The position numbers and the translations under genes were made by a program. A stretch of 64,000 nucleotides of DNA from an uncultured Acidobacteriaceae bacterium. Lineage in GTDB: Bacteria > Acidobacteriota > Terriglobia > Bryobacterales > Bryobacteraceae. Below, piece after piece: positions 7,471 to 32,263 of the stretch (positions are counted from its first letter, which is position 1; each line of letters opens with the position of its first letter). The stretch is taken from the NCBI GenBank assembly GCA_963787575.1, contig CAWBDN010000001.1, positions 5,267 through 69,266 of the forward strand, read 5' to 3'. Below the pieces are notes generated by a model, which was given only the letters and a program-made list of their open reading frames with translations, had not been told where the DNA came from and ran no database searches.

Positions 7471-8191
7471 CGGTGTTGCCAGCCGCCGCAAGGCCGAAGA
7501 GCTGATCAGCGCCGGTCGCGTTTCGGTGAACGGCAAAACGGTTACCGAGCTCGGCTCTAAAGCCGATTTGTCGGTCGACAAGGTAAAGGTGGACGGACGG
7601 ATTTTGAGCGCTCCCAAGAACCACCTTTACGTGGCGCTAAACAAGCCCAAGAATTGCGTGAGCACCGTTCACGATCCGGAGGGGCGCCCGACTGTGATGT
7701 CCTTCTTTAAAGGCATGCACGATCGCTTGTACCCGATCGGCCGGCTAGATTATGCGAGCGAGGGGCTGCTGCTGTTAACGAACGACGGCGAGTTTGCGAA
7801 CAAACTGATATCCCCGGCGAGCCATGTAACAAAGACTTATCTTGTCAAGGTAAACGGCGCTCTCACGCCCGAGCAGGAAGAGGAATTTCGGCGCGGCATT
7901 CCCATGCATGGCCGGCGGACCGCGCCTGCCGGGCTAAAACTGATTCGTAAGAGTGAGAATCCGTGGTATGAAGTTCGCCTTGTGGAAGGCCGGCAAAATC
8001 AGATTCGAATCATGTTCAAACATTTCGGCTGCCTCGTGGAGAAGCTAAAACGGGTGAAGATCGGGTTTCTGGATTTAGGCGCGTTGAAACCGGGCGCCTA
8101 TCGCACGCTTACAAACGCCGAGGTGTCGCATTTCAGGAAAATTTTGCGAATCGGCGATGAAGCTCCGCAAAAAGCAGCAGCCCATGAATGA
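7433..8191 (+). CDS. Pseudouridine synthase, RsuA/RluB family, with S4 domain
   Basis: The S4 domain reads 'RLQKIIANSGVASRRKAEELISAGRVSVNGK'. The catalytic block reads 'GRLDYASEGLLLLTNDG'. The ATG at 7433 is preferred over the longer ORF start at 7379, which overlaps scpB. Confidence 0.85.
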   Translation: MAQERLQKIIANSGVASRRKAEELISAGRVSVNGKTVTELGSKADLSVDKVKVDGRILSAPKNHLYVALNKPKNCVSTVHDPEGRPTVMSFFKGMHDRLYPIGRLDYASEGLLLLTNDGEFANKLISPASHVTKTYLVKVNGALTPEQEEEFRRGIPMHGRRTAPAGLKLIRKSENPWYEVRLVEGRQNQIRIMFKHFGCLVEKLKRVKIGFLDLGALKPGAYRTLTNAEVSHFRKILRIGDEAPQKAAAHE

Positions 8192-8609
8192 CGCCGAGAT
8201 GACGGAGTTGTTTCGAACCGCGAAAACGATCGCTGTCGTCGGCTTATCGAGCAATCCCGTGCGGCCCAGTTTTGGCGTATCACGGTTTCTGCAGCGGCAA
8301 GGTTATCGAGTCATTCCCGTTAATCCAAACGAGACCGAGGTTCTTGGCGAGCGCGCCTACGCATCAATCAAGGATGTACCGGAGCTAATCGATATCGTCA
8401 ATATTTTCCGACGGCCCTCTCGCGTTCGTGAAGTGGTCGAGGCTGCCCTTGAAAAAGGCGCCCGCTGCATCTGGATGCAGGAAGGTGTCGTAAACCGCGA
8501 CGCAGCGAAGAAGGCCGAAGCTGGCGGGATTCCGGTCGTCATGGACAAATGCATTCTCAAAGAATTGGCCCGGCTCCTGGGCCGTTTTACTCATACCTCA
8601 GCGCATTGA
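8184..8609 (+). CDS. CoA-binding domain protein
   Basis: It contains 'KTIAVVGLSSNPVRPSFGVSRFLQRQGYRVIPVNP'. The start is either 8184 or 8157. Its 3' end overlaps the convergent permease gene by 23 nt. Confidence 0.75.
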   Translation: MNDAEMTELFRTAKTIAVVGLSSNPVRPSFGVSRFLQRQGYRVIPVNPNETEVLGERAYASIKDVPELIDIVNIFRRPSRVREVVEAALEKGARCIWMQEGVVNRDAAKKAEAGGIPVVMDKCILKELARLLGRFTHTSAH

Positions 8610-11025
8610 CAGGCTCGATTCGCATGGCCCGAACGGCCGGCAGAAACGATGCCAGAATGGTGGCCGCCATAAGAATCACTCCCGTAACAACGAAGGCGGA
8701 TGGATCGAAGCGTGAAACGCCGAAAAGCAACCCCTCGAGCGAGCGTGTGAGAAATAGCGCGCCAGCGACGCCGACCACGACGCCGACCACACCGAGCATC
8801 AGGCCTTGACTGATCACTTGCAACAGAAGCTGCCACGGCTCAGCGCCGAGCGCCATCTTAATGCCAAATTCGGAAGTACGCTGCTCAACCGAGTACGAGA
8901 TGACGCCGTAAATGCCCACTGTTGCCAGCCCAAGCGCCAGTACGGAGAACATAGTCAGCACAAGGGTCAGGAAGCGCGGGCGCGCCGTCGCCGCTGCAAT
9001 GACGTCGTTCATCGTGCGAACCTTGGCGACTGGGACGCTGGGATCTATCGATGTCACAGCGCGACGAACTGCACCTGCCAACGAAAGAGGATTGCCGGTA
9101 GTTCTCACCACCACGCTCGCATCAGTCAAACCATTGCCTCCGGTGAGGGCTCTATAAGGCAGGAACAACTCGGTTCCCGCCGGTTTGTCCACGCCACCGT
9201 TCTTAATGTCGCCAACAACGCCGACAACCGTGAACCATGACCCGTTACTGCCGCTCGGACGAACTCGCCTCCCGATGGCGGATTGATGAGGCCAGAAGGT
9301 ATTTGCCATGGCGGCATTGACTACAACACCCGGCGTACTCTTGTTTCCATCGCGCGGCTCCAGAAACCGACCTTCAATCAGGCGAGCGCCAAGAGTCTCG
9401 AAGAAATGATCGCCGGCGATTTGATAGTAGGCGACGTTTTGAATCGGCCCGTTCGGCACGGGTACAAAACCCTCGACCGTCGTGTCGTTGTCGTTTTCCC
9501 TGCGTAGAGGCGGCAACCCATACATCATCGTTGCCGATTTGACACCCGGTAACGCGCTTAGCCGGTCCTGCAGAAGTTTCCAAAAGTTCTGTGCCCGGCC
9601 TACATCTTTGTAAGTTGCGTTGGGCAGACTCACGTTGAGCGCCAGCATCCGATCCGGGTTGAATCCCGGGTTGACCTGCTGGAGCTTCCAAAATCCGCGC
9701 ACCATCAGTCCGGCGCCCGCCACCAGCAGAAAGGCCATGCTCATTTGCGTAATCACGAGCGCGCCACGGAAACGAGTAGATGCTGTATTTGCCGATGAGC
9801 GGCCGCTGGATGCTTTCAACGTTTCGTAGACCCGGATGGCCGAGACATGGATGAAAGGAGCGAGCCCGAAAACGACGCCTGTGAGCAATGAGACGATAAG
9901 GGTAAATAGCAGGACGAACCAGTCCAGCCGAATTTCGTCAGCGCGCGGGATACTTCCGGAATTCGTAGCCACAATCAATTTCAGACTGGCTCCGGCAAGT
10001 GCGAGGCCAAGCACGGCACCGGCTACGGAAAGGAGGGCGCCCTCGACGATGAACTGCTTCAGGAGGCGCCCGGTGGACGCCCCAATGGCCCGGCGGATAG
10101 CTACTTCACGCTGCCGGGCTTCGCTTCGGGCGAGCAGAAGGTTCGCCACATTCACGCATGCGATCAGCAGAACGAAAACCACCGCGCCAAGGAGAAGAAG
10201 CATGGACTTGCGAACGCCCCCGACGACCTCGTCGTAAAACGAATACATAGAAACAGGGTGAATCCGTGGGCTGAATACATGATGCCCGGGCGACAACGCC
10301 TCTCCCCAGCGTGCGACCAGACGCGACATTTCGTCTCGCGCCTGCGCCAACGAAACGCCGGGACGGAGCCGCCCCAGAACGTTGTAATTGTGGCCTCCCC
10401 GGTTGGTGCTCTTGGAATTCAACTGCAAGGCGCTCCAAGCTTCCGTCTCGTCCACCTGGCCTGGAGGAAAAACGAAGCTCTTGGGCATGACGCCGATTAC
10501 CGTTGCTTTCGCACCGTTCAGGTACGTGTCTTTTCCCAGGATGTTCGGATCTCCAGCGAACGCACGCTTCCACAGCCCATAGGAAAGGATCACGACCGGA
10601 GCCGCGCCGGGAACGTCATCTTGCAGCGTGATGAGATGGCCCAGAAGAGGTTTGGCATCGAGTATTTGCAGCAGGTCGGCGCTTGCATAGGTGGTCGTCA
10701 CACGCAGAGGTTGGTTCAGCCCTGCAATGTTACTTCCCGTGGTCGCCCACGCGCCGATTGTCTGGAACGATTGCGCGGTTTTTAGATCGAAAACTTCGGG
10801 TTCCGAGACCCAGAACTTGTGAAGACCTCCGCCCGGGAAAGTCGGGAATTCGGTATAGATCCGGACAAGCTGATCGGAATTCCGATAGGGCAGCGGTCGC
10901 AGCACGACGGCGTTCACGATACTGAAGATCGCGGACGTCGCTCCGATGCCAAGCGTCAGGCAGATGAGTGCCGCCAGAGTGAATCCAGGCGTACGAAGGA
11001 GGGTACGAATCGCGTAGCGAAGCAT
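8587..11025 (-). CDS. ADOP-family duplicated orphan ABC permease (MacB/FtsX-type), with no adjacent ATPase
   Basis: The N-terminus 'MLRYAIRTLLRTPGFTLAALICLTLGIGATSAIFSIVNAVVLRPLPY' is typical, and there are two FtsX-like membrane modules. The ATG at 11025 overlaps the upstream stop (TAATG). Confidence 0.85.
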   Translation of the reverse strand: MLRYAIRTLLRTPGFTLAALICLTLGIGATSAIFSIVNAVVLRPLPYRNSDQLVRIYTEFPTFPGGGLHKFWVSEPEVFDLKTAQSFQTIGAWATTGSNIAGLNQPLRVTTTYASADLLQILDAKPLLGHLITLQDDVPGAAPVVILSYGLWKRAFAGDPNILGKDTYLNGAKATVIGVMPKSFVFPPGQVDETEAWSALQLNSKSTNRGGHNYNVLGRLRPGVSLAQARDEMSRLVARWGEALSPGHHVFSPRIHPVSMYSFYDEVVGGVRKSMLLLLGAVVFVLLIACVNVANLLLARSEARQREVAIRRAIGASTGRLLKQFIVEGALLSVAGAVLGLALAGASLKLIVATNSGSIPRADEIRLDWFVLLFTLIVSLLTGVVFGLAPFIHVSAIRVYETLKASSGRSSANTASTRFRGALVITQMSMAFLLVAGAGLMVRGFWKLQQVNPGFNPDRMLALNVSLPNATYKDVGRAQNFWKLLQDRLSALPGVKSATMMYGLPPLRRENDNDTTVEGFVPVPNGPIQNVAYYQIAGDHFFETLGARLIEGRFLEPRDGNKSTPGVVVNAAMANTFWPHQSAIGRRVRPSGSNGSWFTVVGVVGDIKNGGVDKPAGTELFLPYRALTGGNGLTDASVVVRTTGNPLSLAGAVRRAVTSIDPSVPVAKVRTMNDVIAAATARPRFLTLVLTMFSVLALGLATVGIYGVISYSVEQRTSEFGIKMALGAEPWQLLLQVISQGLMLGVVGVVVGVAGALFLTRSLEGLLFGVSRFDPSAFVVTGVILMAATILASFLPAVRAMRIEPVNALRYE

Positions 11026-12686
11026 TACTTGATGATCCCGCGGGCTTCGTCTATAGTTACGAACTGGTTCACTGAAAGGTTCTTGAAATCTTGGCGGGTT
11101 CCACTCGGCCATTCCACGGAAACTGAATTGACGACTTTGTCCTGGCCCAGGCCAAAGGTGAGAGCGAGATCGCTTTGTGAGCAGTAGCTCGAGCCGCTAT
11201 GGACCGTTTGCCACTGCTTACCCAACGCGCTCTCGATGCGAACGACCGCGCCCAAGGCGCTCCGGTTTGAGCGGCTTCCGATGAGGTGAACGTTCAGCCA
11301 GTGATTGTGATTGCCTCCTTGATTGACGTAAAGGAGCGGCGATCCGTCGTTTGTGCTGACCAAGACATCGAGATCGCCATCATGATCGAAATCGGCGTAC
11401 GCTGCGCCACGCGCAAGAATGGGGCGTTGAAAGTCCGCTCCAACGCTCTGGCTAATGTTCTCAAAATGCCCATTGCGCTCATTCCGGAAGAGGAGCGGAG
11501 GCTCGCGATATTGAACTTTGGATTGGATATGGTTGATATCCGGCTCGATGTGGCCGTTGCCGGCAAAAATGTCATCGTAGCCGTCCAGATCGAAGTCGAA
11601 AAAGAACACGCCGAAGGTCAGGCTCAGGAGACTGGCGCGGCCGACCGTCGAAGAAGGCGCCTCGTCCACAAAGAATCCTTTCCCCTCGTTGTGATACAGA
11701 CCGAGCATCTGATTAGCGAAATTGCCGACCAGCAGATGGGGCCTGCCGGAATGATCGTAATCGCCCGTATCCACGCCCATCGCTCCACGCGCCACGCCAT
11801 CCTCCCCGTAGGCGACACCGGCTTGCATGCCCTCTTCAGTAAATGTTCCGTTTCCGTTGTTCCTGTAAAGCTTGCTCGGTTGAGTGTCGTTCGATACGAA
11901 AATGTCCGGCCAGCCGTCGCCGTTGTAATCGAAGACGGCAACACCAAGAGACTTGCTGGTCGTATCTCCTAGCCCGGCTTTCTGCGTAACATCTTCGAAT
12001 TTGCCGCCTCCCAAATTGTGGTAGAGCTTCGAGGAAGTTCCTTTATAGGATTCCGGAGTGCAGTAGGATTTCGTGGCCCCATCGAGCGAGCACCACAGGT
12101 CGTTCCGCGGTGTCCAGGTGACGTAATTCGCGACAAAAAGATCGGCTTTGCCGTCGCGATCATAATCGAGCCAAGCGGCGCTTGTGCCAAAGTTGGCGTT
12201 GTGAATGCCGCTCTGGGCAGTTACATCGCGGAAACGGCCATGACCTTCGTTGTGAAAGAGGCGATCGCCTTCCAATGCCGTGATGTAAACATCAGGCAGT
12301 CCGTCGTTATCATAATCAGCAACAGCCACACCCATGCCGTACATTTCGACATCCAGGCCGCTGCCGCGCGTGATGTCTGTAAATGTGCCGTTATGATTGT
12401 TCCGATAGAGCCCAGGAAGCGACTTCTGAGTGTGCGGAGTGAAATCTCTGCCGTTGATGAGAAGAATGTCGGGCCAGCCGTCTCCGTCAAGGTCAACAAA
12501 AGCGCAGCCGGCTCCTAAGGTTTCGGGCAGATATTTCTTCCCGGTAGCTCCCGTGTGATGAGTAAAGTGGAGGCCCGCTCTTTTTGCGCATTCGACAAAT
12601 TGAATTCCGTTCACAATGGGCGTTGCGGCGAAACTGAACAGGCACAAACTGCCAGCGAGATTAAAAAAAATGCCGGATGTTTTCAT
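11025..12686 (-). CDS. Secreted FG-GAP repeat / ASPIC-UnbV (CRTAC1-like) protein
   Basis: The signal peptide is 'MKTSGIFFNLAGSLCLFSFA'. It has repeated 'D.D.DG..D' FG-GAP calcium motifs (e.g. 'ADYDNDGLPDVYI', 'FDYNGDGWPDIFV') and a C-terminal UnbV block 'ALGAVVRIES..GSSYCSQSDL..FGLG'. Confidence 0.85.
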   Translation of the reverse strand: MKTSGIFFNLAGSLCLFSFAATPIVNGIQFVECAKRAGLHFTHHTGATGKKYLPETLGAGCAFVDLDGDGWPDILLINGRDFTPHTQKSLPGLYRNNHNGTFTDITRGSGLDVEMYGMGVAVADYDNDGLPDVYITALEGDRLFHNEGHGRFRDVTAQSGIHNANFGTSAAWLDYDRDGKADLFVANYVTWTPRNDLWCSLDGATKSYCTPESYKGTSSKLYHNLGGGKFEDVTQKAGLGDTTSKSLGVAVFDYNGDGWPDIFVSNDTQPSKLYRNNGNGTFTEEGMQAGVAYGEDGVARGAMGVDTGDYDHSGRPHLLVGNFANQMLGLYHNEGKGFFVDEAPSSTVGRASLLSLTFGVFFFDFDLDGYDDIFAGNGHIEPDINHIQSKVQYREPPLLFRNERNGHFENISQSVGADFQRPILARGAAYADFDHDGDLDVLVSTNDGSPLLYVNQGGNHNHWLNVHLIGSRSNRSALGAVVRIESALGKQWQTVHSGSSYCSQSDLALTFGLGQDKVVNSVSVEWPSGTRQDFKNLSVNQFVTIDEARGIIK

Positions 12687-12688
12687 GT

Positions 12689-15148
12689 TTACGGCAGCGG
12701 CGCGGATTCGTGATCGTGAATCAATTGCCGTTCGTTGTTGTCTTCCGGGCTGATCATGCGGCGTTGCGCGGTAATCGTCTGAGACGCTTCGTCGGCCTTG
12801 AACCGCTGGAACAGAATCTGCTCCCGGTTGGCACTCGACGTATCGCCCAAACCCCGGTAGCACAGCATGGCTGTATAGTGCATCTGTACATCTTCAGGAT
12901 CGATATCACAGACGCGCTCGAGATAATCGATGGCTTTCGAATACTGGCGCTTAAGGAACAGAATGCGCGCAATCTGATTTAGAACCACTCGATCGCGCGG
13001 ATACTGGGACTCCACGTGCTCCAACGATTTCAGCGCGTCATCGTAGTTGCCATCGGCTTTTTCTATCATGGCGCGGAAGAAATAGATTCTGCCGAGAGAG
13101 GAGTTGATCTTCAGGGCTTGCTCCACAAATGGCTTGGCGGCATCCGTCTCACCCTCCTGAATCAATGCCCGTGCTACGTTCAGCCAACCGTCGGCATATC
13201 CCGGGTCCGCTTCGGTTGTCTTTCGAAAAGCGAACTCCGCTCCTTTCAGATCGCCTTGCAGCAATAATCCGATGCCCCAATCGTTCCACCGCTCCCGTGT
13301 GCCGGAGCGAGCGACGGAATTCCACTGCGGCGTTTCGGTGGAGACGGGAAGCGTAATGCGCGCCTCGGCGAGCGTGACAATTGGAAGATCGGGGATCTGT
13401 CCCTTAAGCCGGCCGGAAACATCGGCGGGAATATTCTTTGGATCGAAGCTGTATTCGAGACTGTTGCGGTCGCTCGCGAGCAGCAGCGAAGGTTGCCCCG
13501 GCTTCGGCTCGCCTGCATAGGAGAAGTGCGTGTAATACCAGGAAAACTTGCGATAGTTCAGTTTCGCGGCGAAGTGAATCCGGCCCTTCGCATCCGGCGG
13601 CACTCTCACCAGGAAATGGGCCACGTCGGCGGCCCCCGGCGGAATCAAGCGAGCATATAGAGTCGTCCGGGACTGCCAGGCGTTGCGTTTGTTAATAGGA
13701 TTTCCGAGGGCATCGAGTTGGTAAGAACGATAGAAGTGCGCGCCGGGTTCCACTGGGCCCTTGCCGTTCTCTTCCACTTTGCCGCTCCAGAAAATGGGCT
13801 TTCCAGCGTCATCCTGCGCTTCTAATTCGAGCCAAACATCGAAGGCGTCGACCGTTCCCCCCGGAAAGAAGTGGCCGATCGTTCGCGTTCGAACGACGAC
13901 ATCCATCCGTACCGTCTCGCCCGGCTGAAGCGAAGCGCTGGATAGATCGAGAGGGGCGGCAACCGCGCCGACTTTGCGAATCACTGCGGGGCCCGTCTGT
14001 TCGGCTTCCTCACCCACCGCAAATGACGTGTTGGCTTGGGGCGCCTCGCCGCGCCGGATCATCTCGGTGTCGGATTTTTGGCGGTTTACGGGGCTCATCG
14101 CCACGATATCCACGGTGACAAACCGGGATTTGAGGAACTTCTCTGTTACGTCCAGTTGCTCCTGATCTTTGTTCGCAAACGGCACAGCTGTATTAGCGGC
14201 CGGAAAACGATGGGAATGAACTTGTCCGTTGATATTGCCAGGATCGTGGGACTTCACTAGCGGCATGTGGCAATCCGCGCAGTTACTGGATTTAGCGGGA
14301 TAGTAAAACGAGCGAGCGCCCTGGCCGGACACGCCGCTCGCCTGCCAATTATCGTATTCGTTAAACCCTCGAAACCAGCGATATTCATTCACCGGGACAT
14401 CGAGGTGAACCTTATGGCATGCCGAACAAAATTCAGCGGAGCTCTCGCGCATAAAAGGCTTCATGAAGGTCCGGCGATGCGCCTCAGGAGCGGCATAGGT
14501 GACGAAATATTCCAGGCGTCGGATCACCGGGTTTGAGCTGCTGGCAATTTCATGCAGCGGGGGATAAGACATCGTAAAATCGCCGTTTCCCACGCTGCCG
14601 TTCACGTGCACAACGGAGTGGCACGACATGCAGCTCAGCCCGGCCTGAGCCTCCGGTGTGTCGATCTGCTCCTTGATTGGACGGTCGAAGCGGCCGTTGA
14701 AGAAGACCGCGTGATCGTGGCAGCCGGCGCACCACTTGCTGGGCTTTGTGCCCACCACGGACTGCATGTATTCAATGGATTTTCGATAGAACTGGTTGTT
14801 GAAAGAGGCGAAGTGATGAGCCGAACTCTGCCACTGGTTGTAAATATCGCGGTGGCATTCGCCACACTTCTTCGACTCCATAAAAAAACTGGACGGCACA
14901 AGATTTCCGTCCGAAGTCTTCGCGCCTGAAGGAAAGAAAGGACTGCGCGGTCCTGCGCCTTCCTGATCCATCGACAGCGGCACGACGCGCGAGTTGACAA
15001 TATGCGCTTGCGGGCGGACGATGTACCAGCGATAGGCAATGCCGCTTACCAGAACCACGGCCGCGGCGGTTAGGGAGAGCTTCGCCCAGAGGAAGTTCTG
15101 CCGACGTGAGAACAGAACGGCGACTGCGAACGAGCGAGAGAACCACAT
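12689..15148 (-). CDS. Multiheme c-type cytochrome (5 CXXCH) fused to C-terminal TPR repeats
   Basis: The heme motifs CGECH, CAGCH, CMSCH, CSACH and CADCH lie between nt 14267 and 14866. TPR-like repeats occupy the last ~200 aa. The stop lies 2 nt before the next gene's start. Confidence 0.8.
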   Translation of the reverse strand: MWFSRSFAVAVLFSRRQNFLWAKLSLTAAAVVLVSGIAYRWYIVRPQAHIVNSRVVPLSMDQEGAGPRSPFFPSGAKTSDGNLVPSSFFMESKKCGECHRDIYNQWQSSAHHFASFNNQFYRKSIEYMQSVVGTKPSKWCAGCHDHAVFFNGRFDRPIKEQIDTPEAQAGLSCMSCHSVVHVNGSVGNGDFTMSYPPLHEIASSSNPVIRRLEYFVTYAAPEAHRRTFMKPFMRESSAEFCSACHKVHLDVPVNEYRWFRGFNEYDNWQASGVSGQGARSFYYPAKSSNCADCHMPLVKSHDPGNINGQVHSHRFPAANTAVPFANKDQEQLDVTEKFLKSRFVTVDIVAMSPVNRQKSDTEMIRRGEAPQANTSFAVGEEAEQTGPAVIRKVGAVAAPLDLSSASLQPGETVRMDVVVRTRTIGHFFPGGTVDAFDVWLELEAQDDAGKPIFWSGKVEENGKGPVEPGAHFYRSYQLDALGNPINKRNAWQSRTTLYARLIPPGAADVAHFLVRVPPDAKGRIHFAAKLNYRKFSWYYTHFSYAGEPKPGQPSLLLASDRNSLEYSFDPKNIPADVSGRLKGQIPDLPIVTLAEARITLPVSTETPQWNSVARSGTRERWNDWGIGLLLQGDLKGAEFAFRKTTEADPGYADGWLNVARALIQEGETDAAKPFVEQALKINSSLGRIYFFRAMIEKADGNYDDALKSLEHVESQYPRDRVVLNQIARILFLKRQYSKAIDYLERVCDIDPEDVQMHYTAMLCYRGLGDTSSANREQILFQRFKADEASQTITAQRRMISPEDNNERQLIHDHESAPLP

Positions 15149-15416
15149 GAACGATGAGCACGCTCTTGTGATCGTGCGTATTACCGATGGCGGTGAGCAG
15201 AACTCCGGAGGCTGCGGCGACTACGATCCAAATGAGCCGCCGTTCCTTGCGCGAGAAAATCAGCGCCGCTATCCCGAGTGCCGCTCCGAGTCCGACGTGA
15301 AGCAGCAAGTTTGCGACATTGAACGCCGTTGCCATGGGGAATGCCCATAAGATCGCGCTGTTGACGAGCAGAACGGCTGCCGAGAGAACCGTGAGAATTG
15401 TGAGGCGGCGATTCAT
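15147..15416 (-). other. Segment of ~90 codons encoding three TM helices, out of frame with and abutting the cytochrome gene start
   Basis: The first 90 aa of ORF 14772..15416 ('MNRRLTILTVLSAAVLLVNSAILWAF..') form three clean hydrophobic helices. The rest of that ORF is the out-of-frame shadow of the cytochrome gene. Confidence 0.4.
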
Positions 15417-15423
15417 CGGATGT

Positions 15424-18400
15424 CTAATCTGAAGGTCTGACCGGAGCTAAGGGCCGGATAAGGCGCAGTGCCGGACGCGTGAGGTAGTCGCGCACGTACT
15501 GCCGGTGCCCGGCGTCGGACGGGAAATGCTCAATGTTCTCGTAAGGGTAGGCGCTCATGGCATGGAATGGCAGCGGCGTAACCGTTTGGCTGAATGCAGT
15601 ATTGGGATCCGCGTCCTTCGCCCAGCCATCGACCATCAGCAGGAAGTCGCGCGACCATCCCTGCGGCAAGCGGGGCAATCCCGTCGATGGATACTGCAGT
15701 TTTAATTCATCGCCCGAACCCATGATCACCAGTTCGTCATCCACGTTGCGCACGAGTGGCAGCACGTCCCCATAGCGTGTATACATTCCCGCTATAGGGT
15801 TCCAGTTGGATATGGGCCGGACTTGATCGTACAGAAATCGCTCCGGCTGCTGCCGTGCGGGGTCGATCACCGCCCGCGAGAAGCCGCGGAAATGCAAATT
15901 CGCGGACTCAGCATTCAAAGGGGTCAGGCGCACCTGCGGAGCGCGCGAGTCCTCCAACAGGAAGATTTCATCCCAATAGACACACAGATTGGTTACGATG
16001 CGTACTTCTCGCGAGCGCGAGAGAAATTTTCCGGTCAAGTCGACCACGATCGTTTTTGGTTTGCCCGATGGAATACCCATGTCTTCGACGACCGTCTTCC
16101 ATTGGCCGGAAGCGTCCTTGACCTGCAGATACGGGAAGACCAACCCGCCTTTGCCATCCTGGGAAGCCCCGAGGAAGGTGCTGCCGTCAGCCCAATCTAC
16201 CCACCCGTTTAATACGAGAGCGGCACGATTAGAAGCCGCCGGATGCCCGAAATCGAGATCGAGCGTGTGCAACTGTGCAACTCCCGCTGCATTGTGTGCG
16301 AAGCCGTCCGGATAGCGATGGTCCGTCCGAGCGACACGGTCGGTAACGTCGACTCCGCGATCGTCTATGGCGCGAACCGGGTGAATCTCGGTATCTCCCC
16401 CGAAGAGGCGAAACTCGGGATACGGTGGCGACTTAAACTTATCGTTCGTGTAGACGTGAACAGGCGACGGATGATCGACGGCAATGAGCTGAACCTTATC
16501 AAGATAGGAAACTTCGTGCAGCTCTTCGGTGATGTGAATCCTGTACTTGCCGTCTGCGGGCTTCAGCGCCGAACCTGGAATCTGAATATGCTCATCGTGA
16601 TTCACTGGAAAGTAATTTCCATCGCTCGAACTCGCCCCCAGCGGAGCCACGCCTAAGACATCGGTGATGAACTGAAATTTCTCGCCATTCCAGGTGAAGA
16701 TCATCGGGCAGGAACCGGAAAGCCGCTGTGCTTCGGCGATGGTCATCGCTCCTCCGCTCTTCTTTTGCGTTTCGTTCTGAATCAACCCATTGGGCCAGGT
16801 GATGCGGATCGTGTCGATGCCAGCATGTCCATCGGTAGCGAAGGCGAGCGGCGATCCGCGATAGATGCGCTTGTCGTAGAACGCTCCCGATTTCATTTCC
16901 ACCGTGGCGCCCATGGCGTTCTTCAGGTTCTTGACGCCCTGGATCCGAACACTGGCCCAACTCTGCCCGGGTGTGGCGTCCATATAAATATGAAGTGAAC
17001 CGTCGGGCAAGATCCGGGCGTAGTCTTCGCGGGTATCGCCGTTGAAATCTGCTCGGACCGGCGCTGCTGCTACACGGGCGTTTGCCGCCGCAATGAACCG
17101 CTCGGAATCGTTATGCACCGCCAACACCCTCGGGCTATAGCTGACGATGTCCAGCAGTCCGTCGTGGTTGAAATCCTGAATGTCCAGCGACGCGGCGCCT
17201 GCTGGAATCGCGGCAATGTCCACAGCTTCAAATATGCCGTTCAGCTCATCCCGGTACAAAACGCCCGGCCGATCCGCATAAGAGGCCACTACATCGCGTG
17301 CCGCCGTATCGCCTCGAATCGCGAACGCTATAGCATCGAGGGCAGTGCCCTTTACAAATGGAAATGCCGAAGTATGCTCCTCGAATTTCCCGTTGCCGTC
17401 ATTACGCATGAGAATGGGGTTTGGGCCGAAAAGCAGAAGATCAAGGTCGTAGTCATGATCGTAATCAAGCCAGAGCGCCTTTGTGACACCAGCAGTACCC
17501 GGGAGTTCGGCGAACTTCGCGAAAGTACCGCGATTGTTGCGGAATACCGCCGCGCCCGCGTCAGTCACGACGCATAAATCGGTTAAGCCGTCGTTATCGA
17601 AATCGCCCGCCGCAATGTCGCGGACGCCGCGGAGACCTTCGAGGCCGGAATTCTTTACAACCTCGCTGCCCCGCTTCAGGAGCGACACTCGATCCGGAGA
17701 CCAGACGAGAAGGTCGGAATGGCCGCTCCCCTCGGAATCGATCACCAGCATCGCGGTATCGGACGAATTCCAACCCGTGCTGATGCGGCGGTCGTCATAA
17801 TGCGTGGACTCATTGGCAGCAGATGGCCGCGGATCGGGCGGGTCGTAGAGCTCCGCGTAAAAGCACCACTCCATGTCTTCCTGAACAGCAGCGCCCTCGC
17901 CGCGCTTCTTCTCCTCCTCGAAAAGCCGGCGTTCGCGAGCCGCATTTTCCTTCTGTCCAGAGCGCTGATAAATAGTAAAGAGCTGAAAGTGGGGTCCAGC
18001 AAGGTTCGGATTCAACTTCTCCGATTCAACGAACTCCGGAAGCGCCGCTTCGAGATCGCCCTTTGATCGCAATACCGCGGCAAGATTGTAATGGCCTATC
18101 GGCTCGGCAGGAACCAGCCGGATGAAACCACGGAACTGCTCGATGGCCCTGTCATAATCGCCGGCATGCTTGTACGCGATGGCCAGGTTGAACCATGTGT
18201 GGGGAATAGCCGGATCCTCTTCCTGAGCGCGGAGCAGCTCTTTGACTCCGGGATCCGTTTGGCCCGCGCGGAGAAGCGCCAGTCCATAATTGATGCGCTC
18301 TCTTACTGAGCGAGGAGCAAGCTGGAGCGCAAGCCGTAATTGCTCGACAGCTTGAAGATGAGTGTCCGGGTTCTCATAGAAGGCCTTGCCGAGGTTGCGA

Positions 18401-18519
18401 TATTCCCAAAGGCGATTCTCGTTCAGGGGAATGTCGGCGGCTAACAAGAGCAAAGCGCAGAGCGCGAGCACGGCGGCGGAAGCCCTGAAACACATCATTG
18501 GATGGACAGAATCAATCAT
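15424..18519 (-). CDS. Large secreted TPR + FG-GAP + ASPIC/UnbV protein with an uncharacterised ~450 aa C-terminal domain
   Basis: It has N-terminal TPR repeats and FG-GAP motifs ('GDFDNDGLTDLCVV', 'DYDHDYDLDLLLF', 'DFNHDGLLDIV'). The UnbV-like block reads 'WASVRIQGVKNLKNAMGATVEMKSG'. Confidence 0.8.
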   Translation of the reverse strand: MIDSVHPMMCFRASAAVLALCALLLLAADIPLNENRLWEYRNLGKAFYENPDTHLQAVEQLRLALQLAPRSVRERINYGLALLRAGQTDPGVKELLRAQEEDPAIPHTWFNLAIAYKHAGDYDRAIEQFRGFIRLVPAEPIGHYNLAAVLRSKGDLEAALPEFVESEKLNPNLAGPHFQLFTIYQRSGQKENAARERRLFEEEKKRGEGAAVQEDMEWCFYAELYDPPDPRPSAANESTHYDDRRISTGWNSSDTAMLVIDSEGSGHSDLLVWSPDRVSLLKRGSEVVKNSGLEGLRGVRDIAAGDFDNDGLTDLCVVTDAGAAVFRNNRGTFAKFAELPGTAGVTKALWLDYDHDYDLDLLLFGPNPILMRNDGNGKFEEHTSAFPFVKGTALDAIAFAIRGDTAARDVVASYADRPGVLYRDELNGIFEAVDIAAIPAGAASLDIQDFNHDGLLDIVSYSPRVLAVHNDSERFIAAANARVAAAPVRADFNGDTREDYARILPDGSLHIYMDATPGQSWASVRIQGVKNLKNAMGATVEMKSGAFYDKRIYRGSPLAFATDGHAGIDTIRITWPNGLIQNETQKKSGGAMTIAEAQRLSGSCPMIFTWNGEKFQFITDVLGVAPLGASSSDGNYFPVNHDEHIQIPGSALKPADGKYRIHITEELHEVSYLDKVQLIAVDHPSPVHVYTNDKFKSPPYPEFRLFGGDTEIHPVRAIDDRGVDVTDRVARTDHRYPDGFAHNAAGVAQLHTLDLDFGHPAASNRAALVLNGWVDWADGSTFLGASQDGKGGLVFPYLQVKDASGQWKTVVEDMGIPSGKPKTIVVDLTGKFLSRSREVRIVTNLCVYWDEIFLLEDSRAPQVRLTPLNAESANLHFRGFSRAVIDPARQQPERFLYDQVRPISNWNPIAGMYTRYGDVLPLVRNVDDELVIMGSGDELKLQYPSTGLPRLPQGWSRDFLLMVDGWAKDADPNTAFSQTVTPLPFHAMSAYPYENIEHFPSDAGHRQYVRDYLTRPALRLIRPLAPVRPSD

Positions 18520-18566: not shown

Positions 18567-19970
18567 TTGCTCCACCTAAGCGCCGTAGCGATGGCGAAGA
18601 TGATCCGCACACGGCAGATCTCTTCCGTCGAATTGATACAGGCGCATCTCGCGCAGATCGAGCGGGCCAATCCAGATATCAATGCAGTGGTTGAACTGCT
18701 CGCCGATTCGGCGCTGGCGAAGGCGAAGGCCGCGGACGAACAGGTGGCGGCGGGCGAATTCACCGGACCTCTTCACGGCGTTCCTTTCTCGATCAAGGAT
18801 TCGATCGAGGTGAAAGGAACAAGATGCACGGCCGGTACTCTGGGCCGGAAAAATGCCGCGCCGGCGGAAACCGACGCGACGCTCGTCGCCCGCTTACGGA
18901 AAGCAGGTGGGATTCCCATCGCCAAAACGAATCTTCCCGATCTGCTCTTCTCGTTTGAAACGGATAACCTGATTTGCGGCCGCACAAATAATCCGTACGA
19001 TCTGGATCGCACGCCCGGGGGCAGCAGCGGGGGCGAATCGGCACTGATCGCGGCATGCGGATCACCGCTGGGACTGGGAAGCGATGCGTTCGGGAGCGTC
19101 AGGATTCCAGCCGCGTTCTGCGGGATCGCCAGCATCAAGCCGACGAGCGGACGCCTCCCGCGCACCGGTCACGTTCCGCCCGCCGGCGGTTGGCTGGAGG
19201 CGGTGTGGCAAATGGGCCCGATGGTCCGCCGTACCGAGGACTTACTTCTTGCGATGAACATTCTAGCCGGCGAAGATGACCTCGATTTCACGTCGCCGCC
19301 CGTGATTCCGGTGCCCGTCGATCATTCGCGGAAGGCGCGGCTAGCGTTTTTCACGGATAACGGATTCGCACCTTGTTCGGCCGAAGTCCAAACCGCTGTC
19401 CGGCGCTGCGCGGACTTTCTTCGCGACACGGGCGCGATTGTTGAAGAACTAAGGCCGCCCGGAGTTGAGCAGGCCTACGAACTCGAACTTGCGATTGCGG
19501 GGGCAGATGGCGGCGATGGGATCGACGCGTATCTGCAAAAAATGGGGAGTACGCAAGTCCATCCGCTGCTGACCGGTTTCCTGCATCGCATGCGGCCTTA
19601 CCGCGCGACAGCTTCCGAGTTAGCCGGGCGATGGAACCAGTGGGACGAATATCGACTGCAAATCAGGCGCTTTTTCCAAAATTACGATGCGATTCTTTGT
19701 CCTGTATATACGCAGGCCGCACTGAAACATGGCGAATCCGAGCACGATGGGAACTTCGAGGGATTCAGCTATACGATGGCCTGGAACATGGCCGGCGTTC
19801 CAGCCGCCACGGTGCGATGCGGCGAGCATGGTGGGCTTCCCATCAACGTGCAAGTCGTCACACGTGCGTGGCGAGATTTGCTGGCCTTAGAGATCTGCCG
19901 CTTGATCGAACTGCAGTTCGGCGGGTGGAAGCCGTCCGAATTACTCCATTCCGCGGCGATTAACGTTTAG
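18567..19970 (+). CDS. Amidase (amidase-signature family)
   Basis: It has the 'GGSSGGESALIA' AS motif, 'HGVPFSIKD' and 'DAFGSVRIPAAFCG'. It has a TTG start. Confidence 0.85.
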   Translation: MLHLSAVAMAKMIRTRQISSVELIQAHLAQIERANPDINAVVELLADSALAKAKAADEQVAAGEFTGPLHGVPFSIKDSIEVKGTRCTAGTLGRKNAAPAETDATLVARLRKAGGIPIAKTNLPDLLFSFETDNLICGRTNNPYDLDRTPGGSSGGESALIAACGSPLGLGSDAFGSVRIPAAFCGIASIKPTSGRLPRTGHVPPAGGWLEAVWQMGPMVRRTEDLLLAMNILAGEDDLDFTSPPVIPVPVDHSRKARLAFFTDNGFAPCSAEVQTAVRRCADFLRDTGAIVEELRPPGVEQAYELELAIAGADGGDGIDAYLQKMGSTQVHPLLTGFLHRMRPYRATASELAGRWNQWDEYRLQIRRFFQNYDAILCPVYTQAALKHGESEHDGNFEGFSYTMAWNMAGVPAATVRCGEHGGLPINVQVVTRAWRDLLALEICRLIELQFGGWKPSELLHSAAINV

Positions 19971-20384: not shown

Positions 20385-22796
20385 TCACCTGGTTGCCGAG
20401 TGAGCCTCAGGCCGCGTCAATTTTATAAGCCAGACTTCCGCCAGACGCGATTTCTTTCTCCAGTTCAGATTTTCTTCGTTGGCGGGCCGGTCCCAGGTCA
20501 GTACCAGCCTTCGATCTTTTACATATGTGGCCGCAACGGGAAATTCTTTAAAATCGCCCATTTCCTTGCCATCCAGAGTGGGTTCAACGCGATCTCCGTT
20601 TATACGCAGCAAGGCTTGGCCCGCGCCTGTGGAACGCACGAGATAGCTTGCGTTCGGATCAAGCGCTTCGTAAACAAGCGCCGCGGGCCAAGAGGTGACT
20701 TGCCAGGAAAGCCGTGCACGGCTCTTACCCTGATCCCACCACCAGAATGTAACTCCCGGTTCTCTAGTTAACACCGGCCCGTTTTCCGGATCGAGATGCA
20801 CTACATGCGGCGATTTGGCGATATTTCCAAGATCGTCATAGAAACTGCCCGGACCAGGATGCTCCCAGATGGCAAGCTCGTGCAATCGGCGGTTCTTCTC
20901 GTCTTCGCCCCGCAGTTGGCGGATGGCCGCGAACTGGTCTTCGAGCCACCAGCGGTTATTCAGGGGATAGTCGACGAAATCGAGCACGGCGCCCCGTTCT
21001 TCTCCGATGGCGAAGTATTTCGGGACGCTTGTCTGAAGGCCGATCGAATGGAATAGCTTGTCACAAAGATTGAAGATGCGATTGCGCAAATCGGAACGGA
21101 CCGGCTGGCGCACCGCGCGATTCAGCACATCTGTGGCTGCAGAGATCGCATGGCCCGAACCTCTCTTTGCGGAGTCGGCCAAGATGCCGTTTGCTTCGGA
21201 TTCGAGCGCGGCTTCATAAATTAAGCGGCTTCGAATATAGGCATCATAGTTGGCGCGCAAGAGGCACATTTGCCAGCGCCAATTGCTTTCGAGCTCCGGA
21301 GCCGCCCTTTCCAGGTGTTGCCACTGAAGTAAGGTCCCATCGACCGCGCCATTGTCCACCAAAGTTCCATGCCAGTTCTTTTCAAGCGCCAAGATGGCGG
21401 TGGCCGCGTCCTCGGCCACGCGCGGACTGAAGTAGACCCGCGCGTAATCGATTAAGATGCCGCGCACGCTTTGATTCGGATCCCAGCTCAACGCACTCCA
21501 AATCGTCTTGTTCACGTCATCGTGAATGCCGTCCGAATATGAGATAAACCCATCGGTGTAGCCGGAGAAGCGATGAAACGTAGCGGCATATTCGACCGGT
21601 CTTGGATTAACGGCTTCGCGTCCCTCCGTCAACGCAAAAGCCTGATCCCACTCCGGGACCTCGTATTGACAGAGCTTGTTGTGCGTCAAGTCGGGATAAT
21701 CGCGCAGCTTGTACTGCTTCGGAAGACTGCTTCGCATCTGGCGCAATGCCGGGCTGGAAGGTCCGGCCACCAGCCCGCCGAGCCATGGAGGCTGCTGGCG
21801 ATTGATGTAATCGTACACATAATCGATATCCGGCTGCCGGAATTGCTGTAGAGAGAGCCAAATTCTGGCCTGCGGGTGAGTAGACCGCAGCAGACGCGCG
21901 ATCTCTTCCAGAAACGGGAAGACAAGTTGAGGTGGATTGCCGCCCGGGTCACCTCCAGGAAAGAAGAGTCCGGTCAGCTCCGGCGTGTCTTCAAAAAATT
22001 GAGCGCACCGCTCGAGCAATTCTCTGCGCCGCACTTCATCCTTCAAATTGAAATCGGCCGGAACCCACACCCAGTAATCCAATCCGTAGCGCTTGCAGAT
22101 TTCACCGATGGCCCGGTTCATATCACGCCGGGGAAACTTCATGACGGGCGTTGTCCGATCGTCCTGGAACGGAATACCTTCAATACTGTTCACGCCGAAG
22201 AAAGTCAGTTCGCGGATGTACTGCTCGAACTGTGCGGGGTCCCAGGCATCGTAGGAGTTCGCCTGGGCGCGATACCCGAGTTGATGGCCGCGAATCGAGA
22301 AGGCGGGCGCGGTTGCCGCGTCTAGCGGAGCATCGAGGGTTAGCCGGCCGCGGCTCCAATCAATTCTTCGCAAAAGATCTCCGACTCCGTATAAGGTGGC
22401 TCGGGCATTCGCGCCGACGATCCAGACAACCGGTGAGGCGCGGCTGGTCTCGTCCACGTAGAGGCGATATCCATCCGCCCGGGTTTCGGGAAGATCGTGT
22501 CCTTCGCGCACCGGTACGCGGCGTTTCCAGCCGGGTACGCTGGTCTGGCAGGTGATCGCGATAACGGGCTGTGTTTCCGGCCATCTGGTAGACATCGCAA
22601 GACGAATTCCAGTGCGTTTTTGGAGTTCTTCGACCAGAACAATGGCGGCGGTCTTCTCGACGTCCGGCAATTCCCCGGGGCGCGATACGACGACTGCGTT
22701 AGCAAGATCGACGGACGTAACAGCGGAAGCGAAACAACACAAGGACTCGACGCACAGCAGCGCGCCAATGCCACATCGCATGAAGATGCACGTCAT
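20385..22796 (-). CDS. Secreted putative glycoside hydrolase (GH20b/GH67N-like N-domain plus TIM-barrel-like core), family not identified
   Basis: It has a signal peptide, 'ADGYRLYVDE..IVGANARATLYGVGDLLRRI' and 'FSIRGHQLGYR..NSYDAWD'. It starts 8 nt downstream of the receptor gene. Confidence 0.5.
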   Translation of the reverse strand: MTCIFMRCGIGALLCVESLCCFASAVTSVDLANAVVVSRPGELPDVEKTAAIVLVEELQKRTGIRLAMSTRWPETQPVIAITCQTSVPGWKRRVPVREGHDLPETRADGYRLYVDETSRASPVVWIVGANARATLYGVGDLLRRIDWSRGRLTLDAPLDAATAPAFSIRGHQLGYRAQANSYDAWDPAQFEQYIRELTFFGVNSIEGIPFQDDRTTPVMKFPRRDMNRAIGEICKRYGLDYWVWVPADFNLKDEVRRRELLERCAQFFEDTPELTGLFFPGGDPGGNPPQLVFPFLEEIARLLRSTHPQARIWLSLQQFRQPDIDYVYDYINRQQPPWLGGLVAGPSSPALRQMRSSLPKQYKLRDYPDLTHNKLCQYEVPEWDQAFALTEGREAVNPRPVEYAATFHRFSGYTDGFISYSDGIHDDVNKTIWSALSWDPNQSVRGILIDYARVYFSPRVAEDAATAILALEKNWHGTLVDNGAVDGTLLQWQHLERAAPELESNWRWQMCLLRANYDAYIRSRLIYEAALESEANGILADSAKRGSGHAISAATDVLNRAVRQPVRSDLRNRIFNLCDKLFHSIGLQTSVPKYFAIGEERGAVLDFVDYPLNNRWWLEDQFAAIRQLRGEDEKNRRLHELAIWEHPGPGSFYDDLGNIAKSPHVVHLDPENGPVLTREPGVTFWWWDQGKSRARLSWQVTSWPAALVYEALDPNASYLVRSTGAGQALLRINGDRVEPTLDGKEMGDFKEFPVAATYVKDRRLVLTWDRPANEENLNWRKKSRLAEVWLIKLTRPEAHSATR

Positions 22797-22804
22797 CGGG
22801 CAGG

Positions 22805-25800
22805 TTACCAGTGCAGGCGTAACGCGAACTGAATCTGCCGCCCTGTGGTGACGACACTATTGATGCTGCCGGCCGAGGGCGAGCCGATGCTGGTGCTCGG
22901 ATAACCGAAGTTCGCCTTGTTTAAGATGTTGAAGAATTCGGAACGGAACGTCAACCCGAATCTCTCGGTCAGGCGGAAGTCTTTATGTCCGCCAAGATCC
23001 CACGTGACCAATCCCGGCGCAATGACGATATTGCGTCCCGCGTTCCCGAAAGTGTAGAGCGCAGGAGCGGTAAAGCAACTCGTTTGAAACCATTGCTGGA
23101 TGCGGCGCTGCGAATCGGGAAGGTTTCCGTCGCAAACACGGTCGGGATATTGGGTTGTTCCGGTGTTGGAAGTGGAGGTCGACATCGTGACCGTACCCGG
23201 AGGACCGTCCTGGGCGCTCACAATGCTGGTTAATTCCCAGCTGCCAGCGAGAGCATTCAGCACACGGTTTGCATTGTTAAGAAACGCATGACCGTGTCCG
23301 AAGGGTAAATCGTACATGAGGCTGAGGGTGAACCGGTGCGGGAAATTGAAATCGGAGAGTCCATACTCCGCATTGACGTTGCGCGGGTTTTGCACGTTAT
23401 TTCTGGATTCCGCCGATGCTGAATTTCCGCCACCGCCCATATCGAGGCTCTTGCTCCAGGTGTAGGCCGCCAAAAACGAGAGGCCGTTCTGCCACCGCTT
23501 TTCCGCCGAGAGCTCGAGAGCATCGTAATTGGATATGCCCCGGGGCTCCCAAGACGAGATGGAAGCATATTGCGGATAGGGGCGCCGCGCAGGAACCGCG
23601 CCTGGGCCAGGGTAGGCGACATTTTCATCGAGCGCAATGAACAAATGATTGCCGCGTGTGCCTACATATGAACTCCGCGCAACCAGAGAGGACGTTAATT
23701 GGCGCTCAATGGTGAAGTTCCACTGCTGCATGTTCGAGGTCTGGTTGGCGGTGGGGATATAGACAAGGCTCGGCAAGTTGGCGGGCGACAAGGTATTCGG
23801 GATACCTTGCACGGTCGTCAGACAGGGTGCGGTCGCACTGCAACTGACGCTGTATTGCTGAGAAAAAGGGTAATTGATGAAGAGCCGCGCCGAGCCTCCG
23901 GTGCCTTGCTCGTTGAAGTAAAACAAGCCGTAAGCGGCGCGCACTACGGTCTTGTCGCCAATACGATAAGCAAGCCCGATGCGCGGGCTGAAATTACACT
24001 TTCGCGTATCAATGATGGCCGGAGGCACGCCGTTTTGTCCCGCGAGCTCTATCGTGCCAAGTCCCGGAACGAAATCCGACTGACGGTTGTATCTCTCGAC
24101 CGGCGGCGTGAACAGGTCATAGCGCAGGCCGAGAGTCACAGTAAGCCGATTGGTGGCGCGCCACTGATCTTGTGCGAATCCGCCATATTCCGTGTAGCTC
24201 AGATAAGGTACACCGTTAACTAACGCGGCTTTCGACGAGCTGCCGGGCAATCCCAGGAGAAAGTCGGCATAGCCGATTCCCGTGCCAGAGGAATGCGCGG
24301 GATTATTCGTGAAATTGCCGCTGTAGTTCAACGACCCGGAAGATCCGGAAAGCTGGAAGAAGCCGAACCCATTGTGAACAGCGCTGAATCCGAATTTGAC
24401 CGAATGCGCTCCATGTATATAAGAGAGCGTGTCACTAACCTGATACGTGTTCTGCGGAACGATTTCGGGAACGGAACTCTCGCTATATCCGCTTTCCGAA
24501 GTGATGCCGATGCTTGCCATGCCGGAAGCCAAGTAACTGGTGTTCGAGCCTTGCAGCCCGAGCTGCGTGGAGAGATTCGTTCCGAGATCGAGCGGTGTTA
24601 CCTGCAAGTACCAGCGCGTGTAGCCAACGGCAAGTTGATTGACCAGAGCGGCCGAAAACGAATGGATCTCCTGAAGCGTCGCCTGGGTACTCGGCGCGTG
24701 ATTGAGCCGTTGGGAAGATCCCAAGAAGGCGTTGGGGTTGGGAGTTCCATTCTTTACGGCGGGAAGCGCGTTGGGATATGTCTCGTCGGCGCCGCCGTAT
24801 GTATAGCGCGCGAACATATTGTCTTTTCCGGAAAACTGCTGGTCTATGCGCCCGTCCCATTCGTTCTGTGTTTGCACCTGTAGAGAGTTCACGCGCAGAT
24901 TATTAGCCACTCCTGGGAGGTTCGGCAGAGCGAAGATTTGCTGGATATTTTGTGCGATCGGATCAATGCGGTTCGCGGGAATCTTGTTGTTCGAGAATAG
25001 CTGCCGGGTGTTGGTGGCGGAACTGTAGGTGTTGGGATCGTAGATGCCCGCCGGATACCCGGAGAAATCTCCGGCGCGCATGGCCGGGGTGGGTTCGCTC
25101 AAGATCGAAGTCGTGGACGAATGGGCGTTTAAACCCTGATAGTCCGCAAAAAAGAAAATCTTGTTTTTGCGTATAGGTCCTCCGATCGCGGCCCCAAACT
25201 GATTTTGCTGGAATGGGGGCTTCTGCGCGTCAAAAAACTCGCGCGCGTCCAAATCGGAATTCCGGAGGAACTCGAACGCCGAGCCGTGGATCTCGTTGGA
25301 GCCCGAACGCGTTATTACATTGACCACCGCGCCGCCGGTGGCAAACTCGGCGTCAGCATCACCCACTTGAACCTTGAACTCGGCGATGTCTTCCAGATTT
25401 GGAAACACCTTCAAGGTACCGACGGATTGGTCGCGATCATCCAGGCCATCAACCATGAAGAGGTTGTATGTGCCGCGAGCCCCACTGGCGGTAATCTCGG
25501 CGCCCGCTCTTTGCGTCTCGTTGCCGCCCTTGGTCTGACGAATTCCACCGACGGGGCCGGGCGTCGTTCCGGGAACAGCCAGTCCGAGCTGGGCGAAGTT
25601 CCTTCCGTTCAATGGCAACTGCTGTATCTGTTCCTGACTGATTACGTTGCCGACTTCGGTCGATTCCGTACTCAGCAGTGGCGCACCGCCCTGCACCGTA
25701 ACCTCCTGCTGAATGCTGCCCACCTGCAACCTAAAATCCTGTTGGACGATTTGCTGAATTTGCAGCGAAAGATCCTTTCGAAGTCCAGAAGCGAATCCCT

Positions 25801-32099: not shown

Positions 32100-32263
32100 T
32101 CCAAAATGACCCCTTCTATGGCTGCGCTCGCGCGGCGCGTGCGGACCCGGCTTGTATTCTCTACCGAATTCTGCCGGATCAAAAGTTAACTTAACCGTAA
32201 AGTTGGGACGCGATCGGCTGAAGCGGCTAAACAATTGCTCTTGCAGTAAACTACTAGTGCGAT

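Follow-up and report, generated by a model that had tools for sequence, protein, structure and literature searches.

What is the conserved unit in a tightly packed gene cluster on the minus strand (8587-18519) of a 64,000-nucleotide (nt) stretch of DNA from an uncultured Acidobacteriaceae bacterium, and what might that unit do? The stretch (NCBI assembly GCA_963787575.1, contig CAWBDN010000001.1, positions 5,267 to 69,266) is called the window hereafter. Within the cluster four long open reading frames (ORFs), which we name genes A to D, and one short ORF run head to tail, and a first-pass annotation had described them as a single operon of propeller proteins, a five-heme cytochrome fused to TPR repeats and an ATPase-less ADOP permease, forming an envelope redox or export machine. 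We find that the conserved unit is narrower, i.e., the cytochrome gene B together with gene C for a CRTAC1-like propeller protein, with gene A as an optional member present at about half of the loci. We propose that B-C(-A) would be an uncharacterised envelope module of Acidobacteriota for periplasmic electron transfer linked to the quinone pool, with propeller proteins docked to it, and we put the probability of this reading at about 0.5. The features of the cluster are:

15424-18519, minus strand: gene A, 1031 amino acids (aa), secreted; TPR, FG-GAP propeller, degenerate UnbV region and a 437-aa C-terminal domain
12689-15416, minus strand: gene B, about 908 aa; five transmembrane (TM) helices, pentaheme domain, beta-sandwich and TPR, split by a frameshift in the window
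15129-15131, minus strand: frameshift in gene B, a single extra base, located by DNA alignment with five relatives
11025-12686, minus strand: gene C, 553 aa; secreted CRTAC1-like FG-GAP/UnbV propeller protein
8587-11025, minus strand: gene D, 812 aa; ADOP-family permease of the duplicated MacB/FtsX type
8567-8583, minus strand: GC-rich hairpin directly after the gene D stop, from a scan for terminator-like elements (consensus match only)

The coupling of these genes is as tight as first claimed, with inter-gene gaps of 7, 2 and −1 nt when the junctions are read directly. Gene A stops with TAG at 15426-15424, and seven nt on an ATG at 15416 starts a hydrophobic ORF that extends to about 15132; the 819-aa cytochrome ORF (15148-12689) ends in TAA, followed two nt later by the ATG of gene C at 12686; and at TAATG (11027-11023) the TAA of gene C overlaps the ATG of gene D. 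Gene C had been given as a 612-aa FG-GAP/UnbV gene. Its family and the TAATG overlap stand but its length does not, as the 612-aa version is the longest ORF, running from an upstream GTG inside gene B, and the ATG at 12686 gives 553 aa with a signal peptide. The earlier view that all products are membrane or exported proteins is supported, and profile searches matched Cytochrome_C554 in B, UnbV_ASPIC and FG-GAP in C, and MacB_PCD and FtsX in D. Scans for promoters and terminators within the cluster returned matches at chance level only.

The short hydrophobic ORF had been listed as a separate small membrane segment, and this part of the earlier description fails. All 119 non-fragment relatives listed for the 819-aa ORF are 904-930 aa long, and they start with the sequence of the short ORF (MNRRLT...NSA.LWAFP...NLLLHVGLG...GNTHDH...). 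DNA alignment of the window with five relatives placed one extra base in the window, just past the HVVLSL codons, and when base 15131 is skipped a 908-aa product results, which aligns without gaps to a relative (P0002) over residues 1-907 at 86.7% identity. By these alignments the two ORFs are one gene, and the small segment is its N-terminal 5-TM domain, detached by the one-base frameshift. Programmed frameshifting could be ruled out since the extra base occurs in none of the relatives compared. It stems instead from faulty sequencing or assembly, most likely the latter, or from a recent lesion of the gene; a homopolymer/indel assembly error is plausible because the closest relatives are long-contig metagenome-assembled genomes. 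If the frameshift were real, the 819-aa product would keep TM5 as a signal anchor and would be without TM1-4.

Conservation of the gene neighbourhood was assessed in 164 related loci. B relatives turned up in at least 580 genomes when one genome per GTDB species was scanned; the best 80 of these, all Acidobacteriota from several orders, were combined with four exact-protein look-ups to give 84 genome loci, for which all ORFs were clustered. The other 80 loci came from metagenomes, with B 50-80% identical to the window B; they belong mostly to the same clade as the window, and distant clades are represented by three loci that were looked up. The wider B family comprises 940 clusters at 50% identity with E <= 1e-30. 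B was present at 84/84 genome loci, followed downstream by C on the same strand at 82/84 and preceded by A on the same strand at 54/84; besides A, B, C and an amidase cluster, nothing else recurred in the ORF clustering of these loci. C also lay downstream of B at all 63 metagenome loci with room for it. The gap from B to C has a median of −1 nt (n = 151), and the pairing is kept at 52% B identity (L169) and even at 33% (L167), where the two genes overlap. A stands upstream of B at 81 of the 164 loci, most often with a gap of −4 nt (an ATGA overlap, 29/81), and about 29 loci with sufficient upstream sequence are genuinely without it. Identities to the window proteins co-vary between B and A (r = 0.91) and between B and C (r = 0.68), a pattern that indicates co-inheritance.

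The first-pass annotation had asked whether the cytochrome-TPR, CRTAC1-like and ADOP genes occur together as a trio more often than expected. The first two are syntenic across Acidobacteriota far beyond chance, but the ADOP gene does not belong with them, so that the trio gives way to B and C with A optional. The same data bear on the simplest alternative, that the genes have been juxtaposed by chance and share no functional link. TPR, FG-GAP and ADOP paralogs are abundant in Acidobacteriota, and ASPIC/UnbV is among the paralog families expanded in Solibacter (PMC3174227), but B and C keep the same order and strand, with stop and start abutting or overlapping, at about 145 independent loci at 50-86% identity. 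As an account of the whole cluster, chance is scarcely credible; for A-B-C it is refuted, and for the ADOP gene it is the best description.

That ADOP gene, D, scores 874.9 bits against TIGR03434 (cut-off 622.3) over residues 2-812 and contains two stretches each of MacB_PCD (PF12704) and FtsX (PF02687). Six-frame translation of the 64-kb window revealed no LSGGQ and no Walker A motif (GxxGxGK[ST]T), in line with the earlier remark that the permease has no ABC ATPase nearby. It shares with ADOP (TIGR03434)/MacB-type proteins its full length, duplicated halves and the lack of a neighbouring ATPase gene, and differs only in a link to A-B-C that is local to few genomes. By these matches D is an ordinary orphan ADOP, and nothing about it is unusual in itself. 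Acidobacterial genomes carry tens of ADOP paralogs.

The earlier proposal would nevertheless join D to the others, all four genes making up one envelope export or redox machine. The C stop overlaps the ADOP start, no terminator lies between them, an orthologous ADOP gene follows C at three other loci, all in close relatives (L008, L009 and L019), and at L167, in a distant lineage, an ADOP-type gene sits directly upstream of B. These three loci are, besides the window, the only ones among the 164 with a D ortholog (70-78% identity) after C, and by alignment coordinates the two genes are much farther apart there (about 150 nt to 2.3 kb) than in the window. Counting ADOP-type genes of every kind, 8/84 genome loci have one within 8 kb, the three orthologs included, and 0/80 metagenome loci have one in their flanks; beside the module the permease is absent at about 160 of the 164 loci, some of the closest relatives among them. 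Equally close or closer relatives do without it (L012 at 86% B identity; L005, L006, L007 and L010 at 81-86%), and with so many paralogs per genome occasional adjacency is expected, so that 8/84 is about what chance would give. A single four-gene machine is therefore highly improbable, and 'export' loses its basis once the permease is seen to lie outside the unit. We take D to be a recent, local and lineage-specific neighbour, and not a member of the module, that from the TAATG overlap is likely co-transcribed with C in the window genome.

At L167 (5460-12400; GCA_044869805.1, JBIOXV010000005.1), the gene directly upstream of B is of the ADOP-type MacB/FtsX kind, the CRTAC1-like gene overlaps the B stop, and the cluster adjoins large non-ribosomal peptide synthetase and polyketide synthase genes. 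We treat the position of the ADOP gene there as a coincidence.

An AlphaFold2 (AF2) model of B, usable outside the heme domain only (where the predicted local distance difference test score, pLDDT, is <50), places TM helices at residues 2-25, 31-54, 59-77, 84-101 and 105-131, a beta-sandwich region at 433-691 and a TPR solenoid of about six repeats at 707-888; the beta-sandwich domain carries an invariant GHxFPxG motif. Lysine and arginine counts of 2/0/4/1/3 in the successive loops of the TM domain fit a topology with the N-terminus inside and the C-terminus outside, and the heme domain would therefore be periplasmic. In an alignment of 16 TM domains that share only 20-30% identity, H40, G44 and H90 alone are invariant. 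In TM2, H40 is 9 residues short of the periplasmic end, and in TM4, H90 is 6 residues short of it, and both are equally deep; one b heme with bis-His ligation near the periplasm would be expected to look like this, as a prediction only. With two invariant histidines, and not the four needed for two b hemes, at most one bis-His heme is possible, and the domain does not qualify as a member of the FdnI/HydC type.

The five heme sites first reported in the cytochrome-TPR protein are confirmed, with CXXCH motifs at residues 184, 229, 262, 330 and 379 alongside a Cytochrome_C554 match and the TPR. They are conserved family-wide, the first one as CX4CH in distant clades. When the heme-domain profile was compared with PDB sequences, the best match was cytochrome c552 of Thermochromatium tepidum (5ze8; E 4e-11, hemes 1-3 only), followed more weakly by MccA (E 2.9e-4), the multiheme selenoprotein MccSep (5e-3) and c554 (0.016). 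Against the NCBIfam ExtKL equivalog B reached 19 bits where the cut-off is 250 (E 4e-4), and it is not an ExtKL ortholog. Fold searches of the PDB with two AF2 models returned TPR matches only and were uninformative for the heme domain of B and the C-terminal domain of A. Cytochrome c552 has been grouped with ExtKL and Gsu2801 of Geobacter in a pentaheme family with a presumed electron-transfer role and an Ig-like domain, related to archaeal cytochrome nanowires (PMC11976967); these proteins and B have in common five c-heme motifs followed by a beta-sandwich domain, which in B is a predicted one. From the profile match we consider the heme domain of B to be related to the c552/ExtKL family. 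The sequence match covers part of the heme domain only, however, and the known proteins are soluble, periplasmic and about 280-435 aa long, whereas B adds the 5-TM domain with its histidine pair and the TPR arm and, unlike c552/ExtKL, comes with a fixed CRTAC1-like partner gene.

The same architecture of TM helices, five hemes and TPR was also seen in a B-like protein of 29% identity at L165 (8001-10790; Logan SRR21707639). This gene has no CRTAC1-like neighbour; polysaccharide deacetylase genes stand on either side of it, inside a glycosyltransferase/Polysacc_synt cluster.

Alternatively, B could itself be a multiheme enzyme like those of the NrfA/MccA/c554 superfamily, in which an open heme acts on a small molecule (an N-oxide, an S-oxide or a peroxide) and C/A are accessory. 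Its profile touches MccA, MccSep and c554, only three invariant distal histidines serve five hemes, near-invariant CHK, CHD and CHM contexts occur at the heme sites, and in other anaerobes hydrazine-synthase homologs have CRTAC1-family genes beside them (PMC12758564). However, the best relative, c552, is described as a low-potential electron carrier, the active-site motifs of NrfA (CXXCK) and MccA (CX15CH, Cu site) are absent from B, and the matches to enzymes span heme-binding stretches only. We regard an enzymatic B as unlikely.

Gene C is a clear member of its family. In Pfam searches it matched FG-GAP_3 (167.9 bits, seven stretches), FG-GAP (68.2 bits) and UnbV_ASPIC (PF07593; 70.7 bits, cut-off 23.4), the last over residues 536-603 of the 612-aa ORF, and it matched the human CRTAC1 structure 9etn at E 8.8e-19. 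Its propeller has seven blades with calcium-type FG-GAP motifs (DxDxDG). Compared with the CRTAC1/ASPIC-UnbV family (PDB 9ETN), C has the same propeller and UnbV modules and differs in that its start codon is coupled to a multiheme cytochrome gene.

Gene A has the same modules in degenerate form and differs from the family by its extra TPR and 437-aa domain. Its signal peptide is followed by TPR (about residues 30-207), an FG-GAP propeller (about 240-520) and a degenerate UnbV/ASPIC-like region (about 520-595). TPR and FG-GAP_3 were matched in Pfam; the UnbV_ASPIC match is partial and below threshold (20.1 bits, cut-off 23.4; E 5.9e-4), and some A orthologs pass PF07593 in precomputed Pfam assignments. 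On this evidence A is a divergent CRTAC1/ASPIC-UnbV relative and not a clean member of the family. Its AF2 model has a pLDDT of 76.9. Residues 595-1031 (15427-16737, minus strand) form a highly conserved, beta-rich C-terminal domain of 437 aa, for which we found no Pfam family and no PDB sequence relative; its conserved motifs are AEAQRLSGSCPMIFTWNG, GWVDWADGSTF and VDGWAKDAD.NTA. One A homolog (P0329; 1431 aa, on a 146,686-bp contig) additionally has a Cytochrome_C554 Pfam hit and is apparently either an A-B fusion or a read-through by an error at the ATGA overlap; a real fusion would be Rosetta-stone evidence for an interaction between A and B.

In integrins, and in CRTAC1 itself, propellers of the FG-GAP/CRTAC1 type serve in adhesion or ligand binding. 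In a further interpretation, B would mainly be a TPR protein that senses redox state or acts as a scaffold in the assembly or processing of an envelope polymer (e.g., exopolysaccharide or matrix), C/A would be calcium-dependent propellers that bind glycan or matrix, and the hemes would report the redox state and carry no respiratory current. It would be consistent with the match of C to human CRTAC1, a propeller of a type that binds ligands, with weak matches of the TPR arm to PrsT (PEP-CTERM), PilW, TadD and LapB-type scaffolds, and with a clade of B relatives (P0225) that sits between polysaccharide deacetylases and glycosyltransferases. Yet the TPR matches are generic and fall far under the family cut-offs, polysaccharide genes are not conserved around the B-C clade, and five conserved hemes plus a TM histidine pair would be a heavy investment for a sensor. 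We hold this interpretation to be doubtful, with perhaps a modest chance of being right.

Our preferred reading, a quinone-pool-linked electron-transfer module, assigns each part of the unit a step. H40 and H90 would hold a b-type heme or otherwise connect B to the quinone pool, electrons would next run along the five c hemes of B, the TPR arm would hold the propeller protein(s) C/A, and the propellers would bind an extracytoplasmic substrate or structure the complex. The link to the quinone pool draws on analogy with the TM and multiheme fusions CbcL and ImcH of Geobacter, which are inner-membrane multiheme quinol oxidases/reductases (PMC6295460) and carry on a single chain, as B appears to, both a polytopic TM domain and a multiheme c domain in the periplasm. 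The likeness does not extend to family. CbcL has nine hemes at the N-terminus and, at the C-terminus, six TM helices that form an FdnI-like domain with bound b heme, whereas B has no significant FdnI match; ImcH has three TM helices, seven hemes and NapC/NirT similarity, and belongs to a different family from B. Unlike B, both lack a TPR arm and a propeller partner.

Several results weigh against this preferred reading. Among PDB entries the TM profile comes closest to FdnI, but not significantly (E 0.065), and the Pfam Ni_hydr_CYTB matches in two distant members (E 0.13 and 3.1) are not significant either. At its low model confidence (pLDDT <50) the heme domain offers no comparable heme geometry or fold. 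The invariant distal histidines number three for five hemes, and one or two hemes may therefore be His/Met-ligated or open, which would imply a catalytic role over a relay. The P0225 clade, B-like at 29% identity, is without C and stands in a polysaccharide-synthesis cluster. Finally, we know of no redox cofactor motif in any FG-GAP/UnbV protein. A bolder claim, that B-C is an unrecognised type of quinone-pool-linked periplasmic oxidoreductase, very common in soil Acidobacteriota, in which C as a calcium propeller is the substrate-binding or electron-accepting partner of a TM-anchored b/c5 cytochrome, is offered tentatively and would more probably prove wrong. If it were true, the bacterial CRTAC1/ASPIC-UnbV family would for the first time have a biochemical role, e.g., in passing electrons to or from humic, mineral or polymeric substrates outside the cell.

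Secreted propellers encoded beside periplasmic heme proteins have been met elsewhere. The NHL-repeat genes UetH/I of Tenderia are propeller genes in a multiheme-cytochrome cluster and were proposed to structure the complex (10.1101/2022.05.06.490989), and in non-anammox anaerobes a CRTAC1-family gene lies between homologs of hydrazine synthase (PMC12758564). These clusters share that arrangement with B-C but involve other propeller families or heme proteins, and none has a fusion of TM helices, pentaheme domain and TPR. Neither this fusion nor its fixed pairing with a CRTAC1-like gene was found described in the literature, Pfam, NCBIfam or structures searched, and the claim that the combination is uncharacterised held in that it matched no characterised system in the literature, Pfam, NCBIfam or PDB. 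Database names go no further than 'tetratricopeptide repeat protein', 'TadD/PilF', 'VCBS/FG-GAP repeat protein' and 'CRTAC1 family'. What is known is thus each domain family and D as an ADOP; what is new is the TM-pentaheme-TPR fusion and its fixed CRTAC1-like partner. Literature on the Verrucomicrobia porin-cytochrome system and on the Paludibaculum genome was also considered and proved unrelated to the B-C pair.

Acidobacteriota rank with the most abundant bacteria of soils, and for most of their envelope proteins no role is known. A fixed redox partner provides a testable handle on the bacterial CRTAC1/ASPIC-UnbV family, which has no assigned function, and B is an added candidate on the short list of inner-membrane multiheme proteins that possibly link the quinone pool to the periplasm. 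The analysis also drops the ADOP permease as a false lead and flags a probable assembly frameshift.

The cluster is bounded on one side by a convergent gene with a CoA-binding domain (8157-8609, plus strand), which shares the hairpin at 8567-8583; this hairpin is likely the end of the transcription unit. On the other side lies an amidase gene, divergent to gene A, from 18567 onwards. This amidase-family gene (18567-19970, plus strand) begins about 47 nt from the start of gene A, and the same amidase cluster is near the module at 22/84 genome loci, a hint that in one sub-clade the two share their regulatory region. Genes in the flanks include ScpA/ScpB, a pseudouridine synthase and CarboxypepD_reg/OMP_b-brl_4 outer-membrane proteins; taken with the closest homologs, which come from Terriglobia/Bryobacterales-like metagenome-assembled genomes, they assign the window to Acidobacteriota. 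Two flanking genes on the minus strand (20385-22796 and 26311-28758) encode proteins of about 800 aa without a Pfam or NCBIfam match; compared with each other they have no similarity and are not paralogs. Each of them lies directly downstream of a large CarboxypepD_reg plus OMP_b-brl_4 gene (22805-26050 and 28542-32234, respectively).

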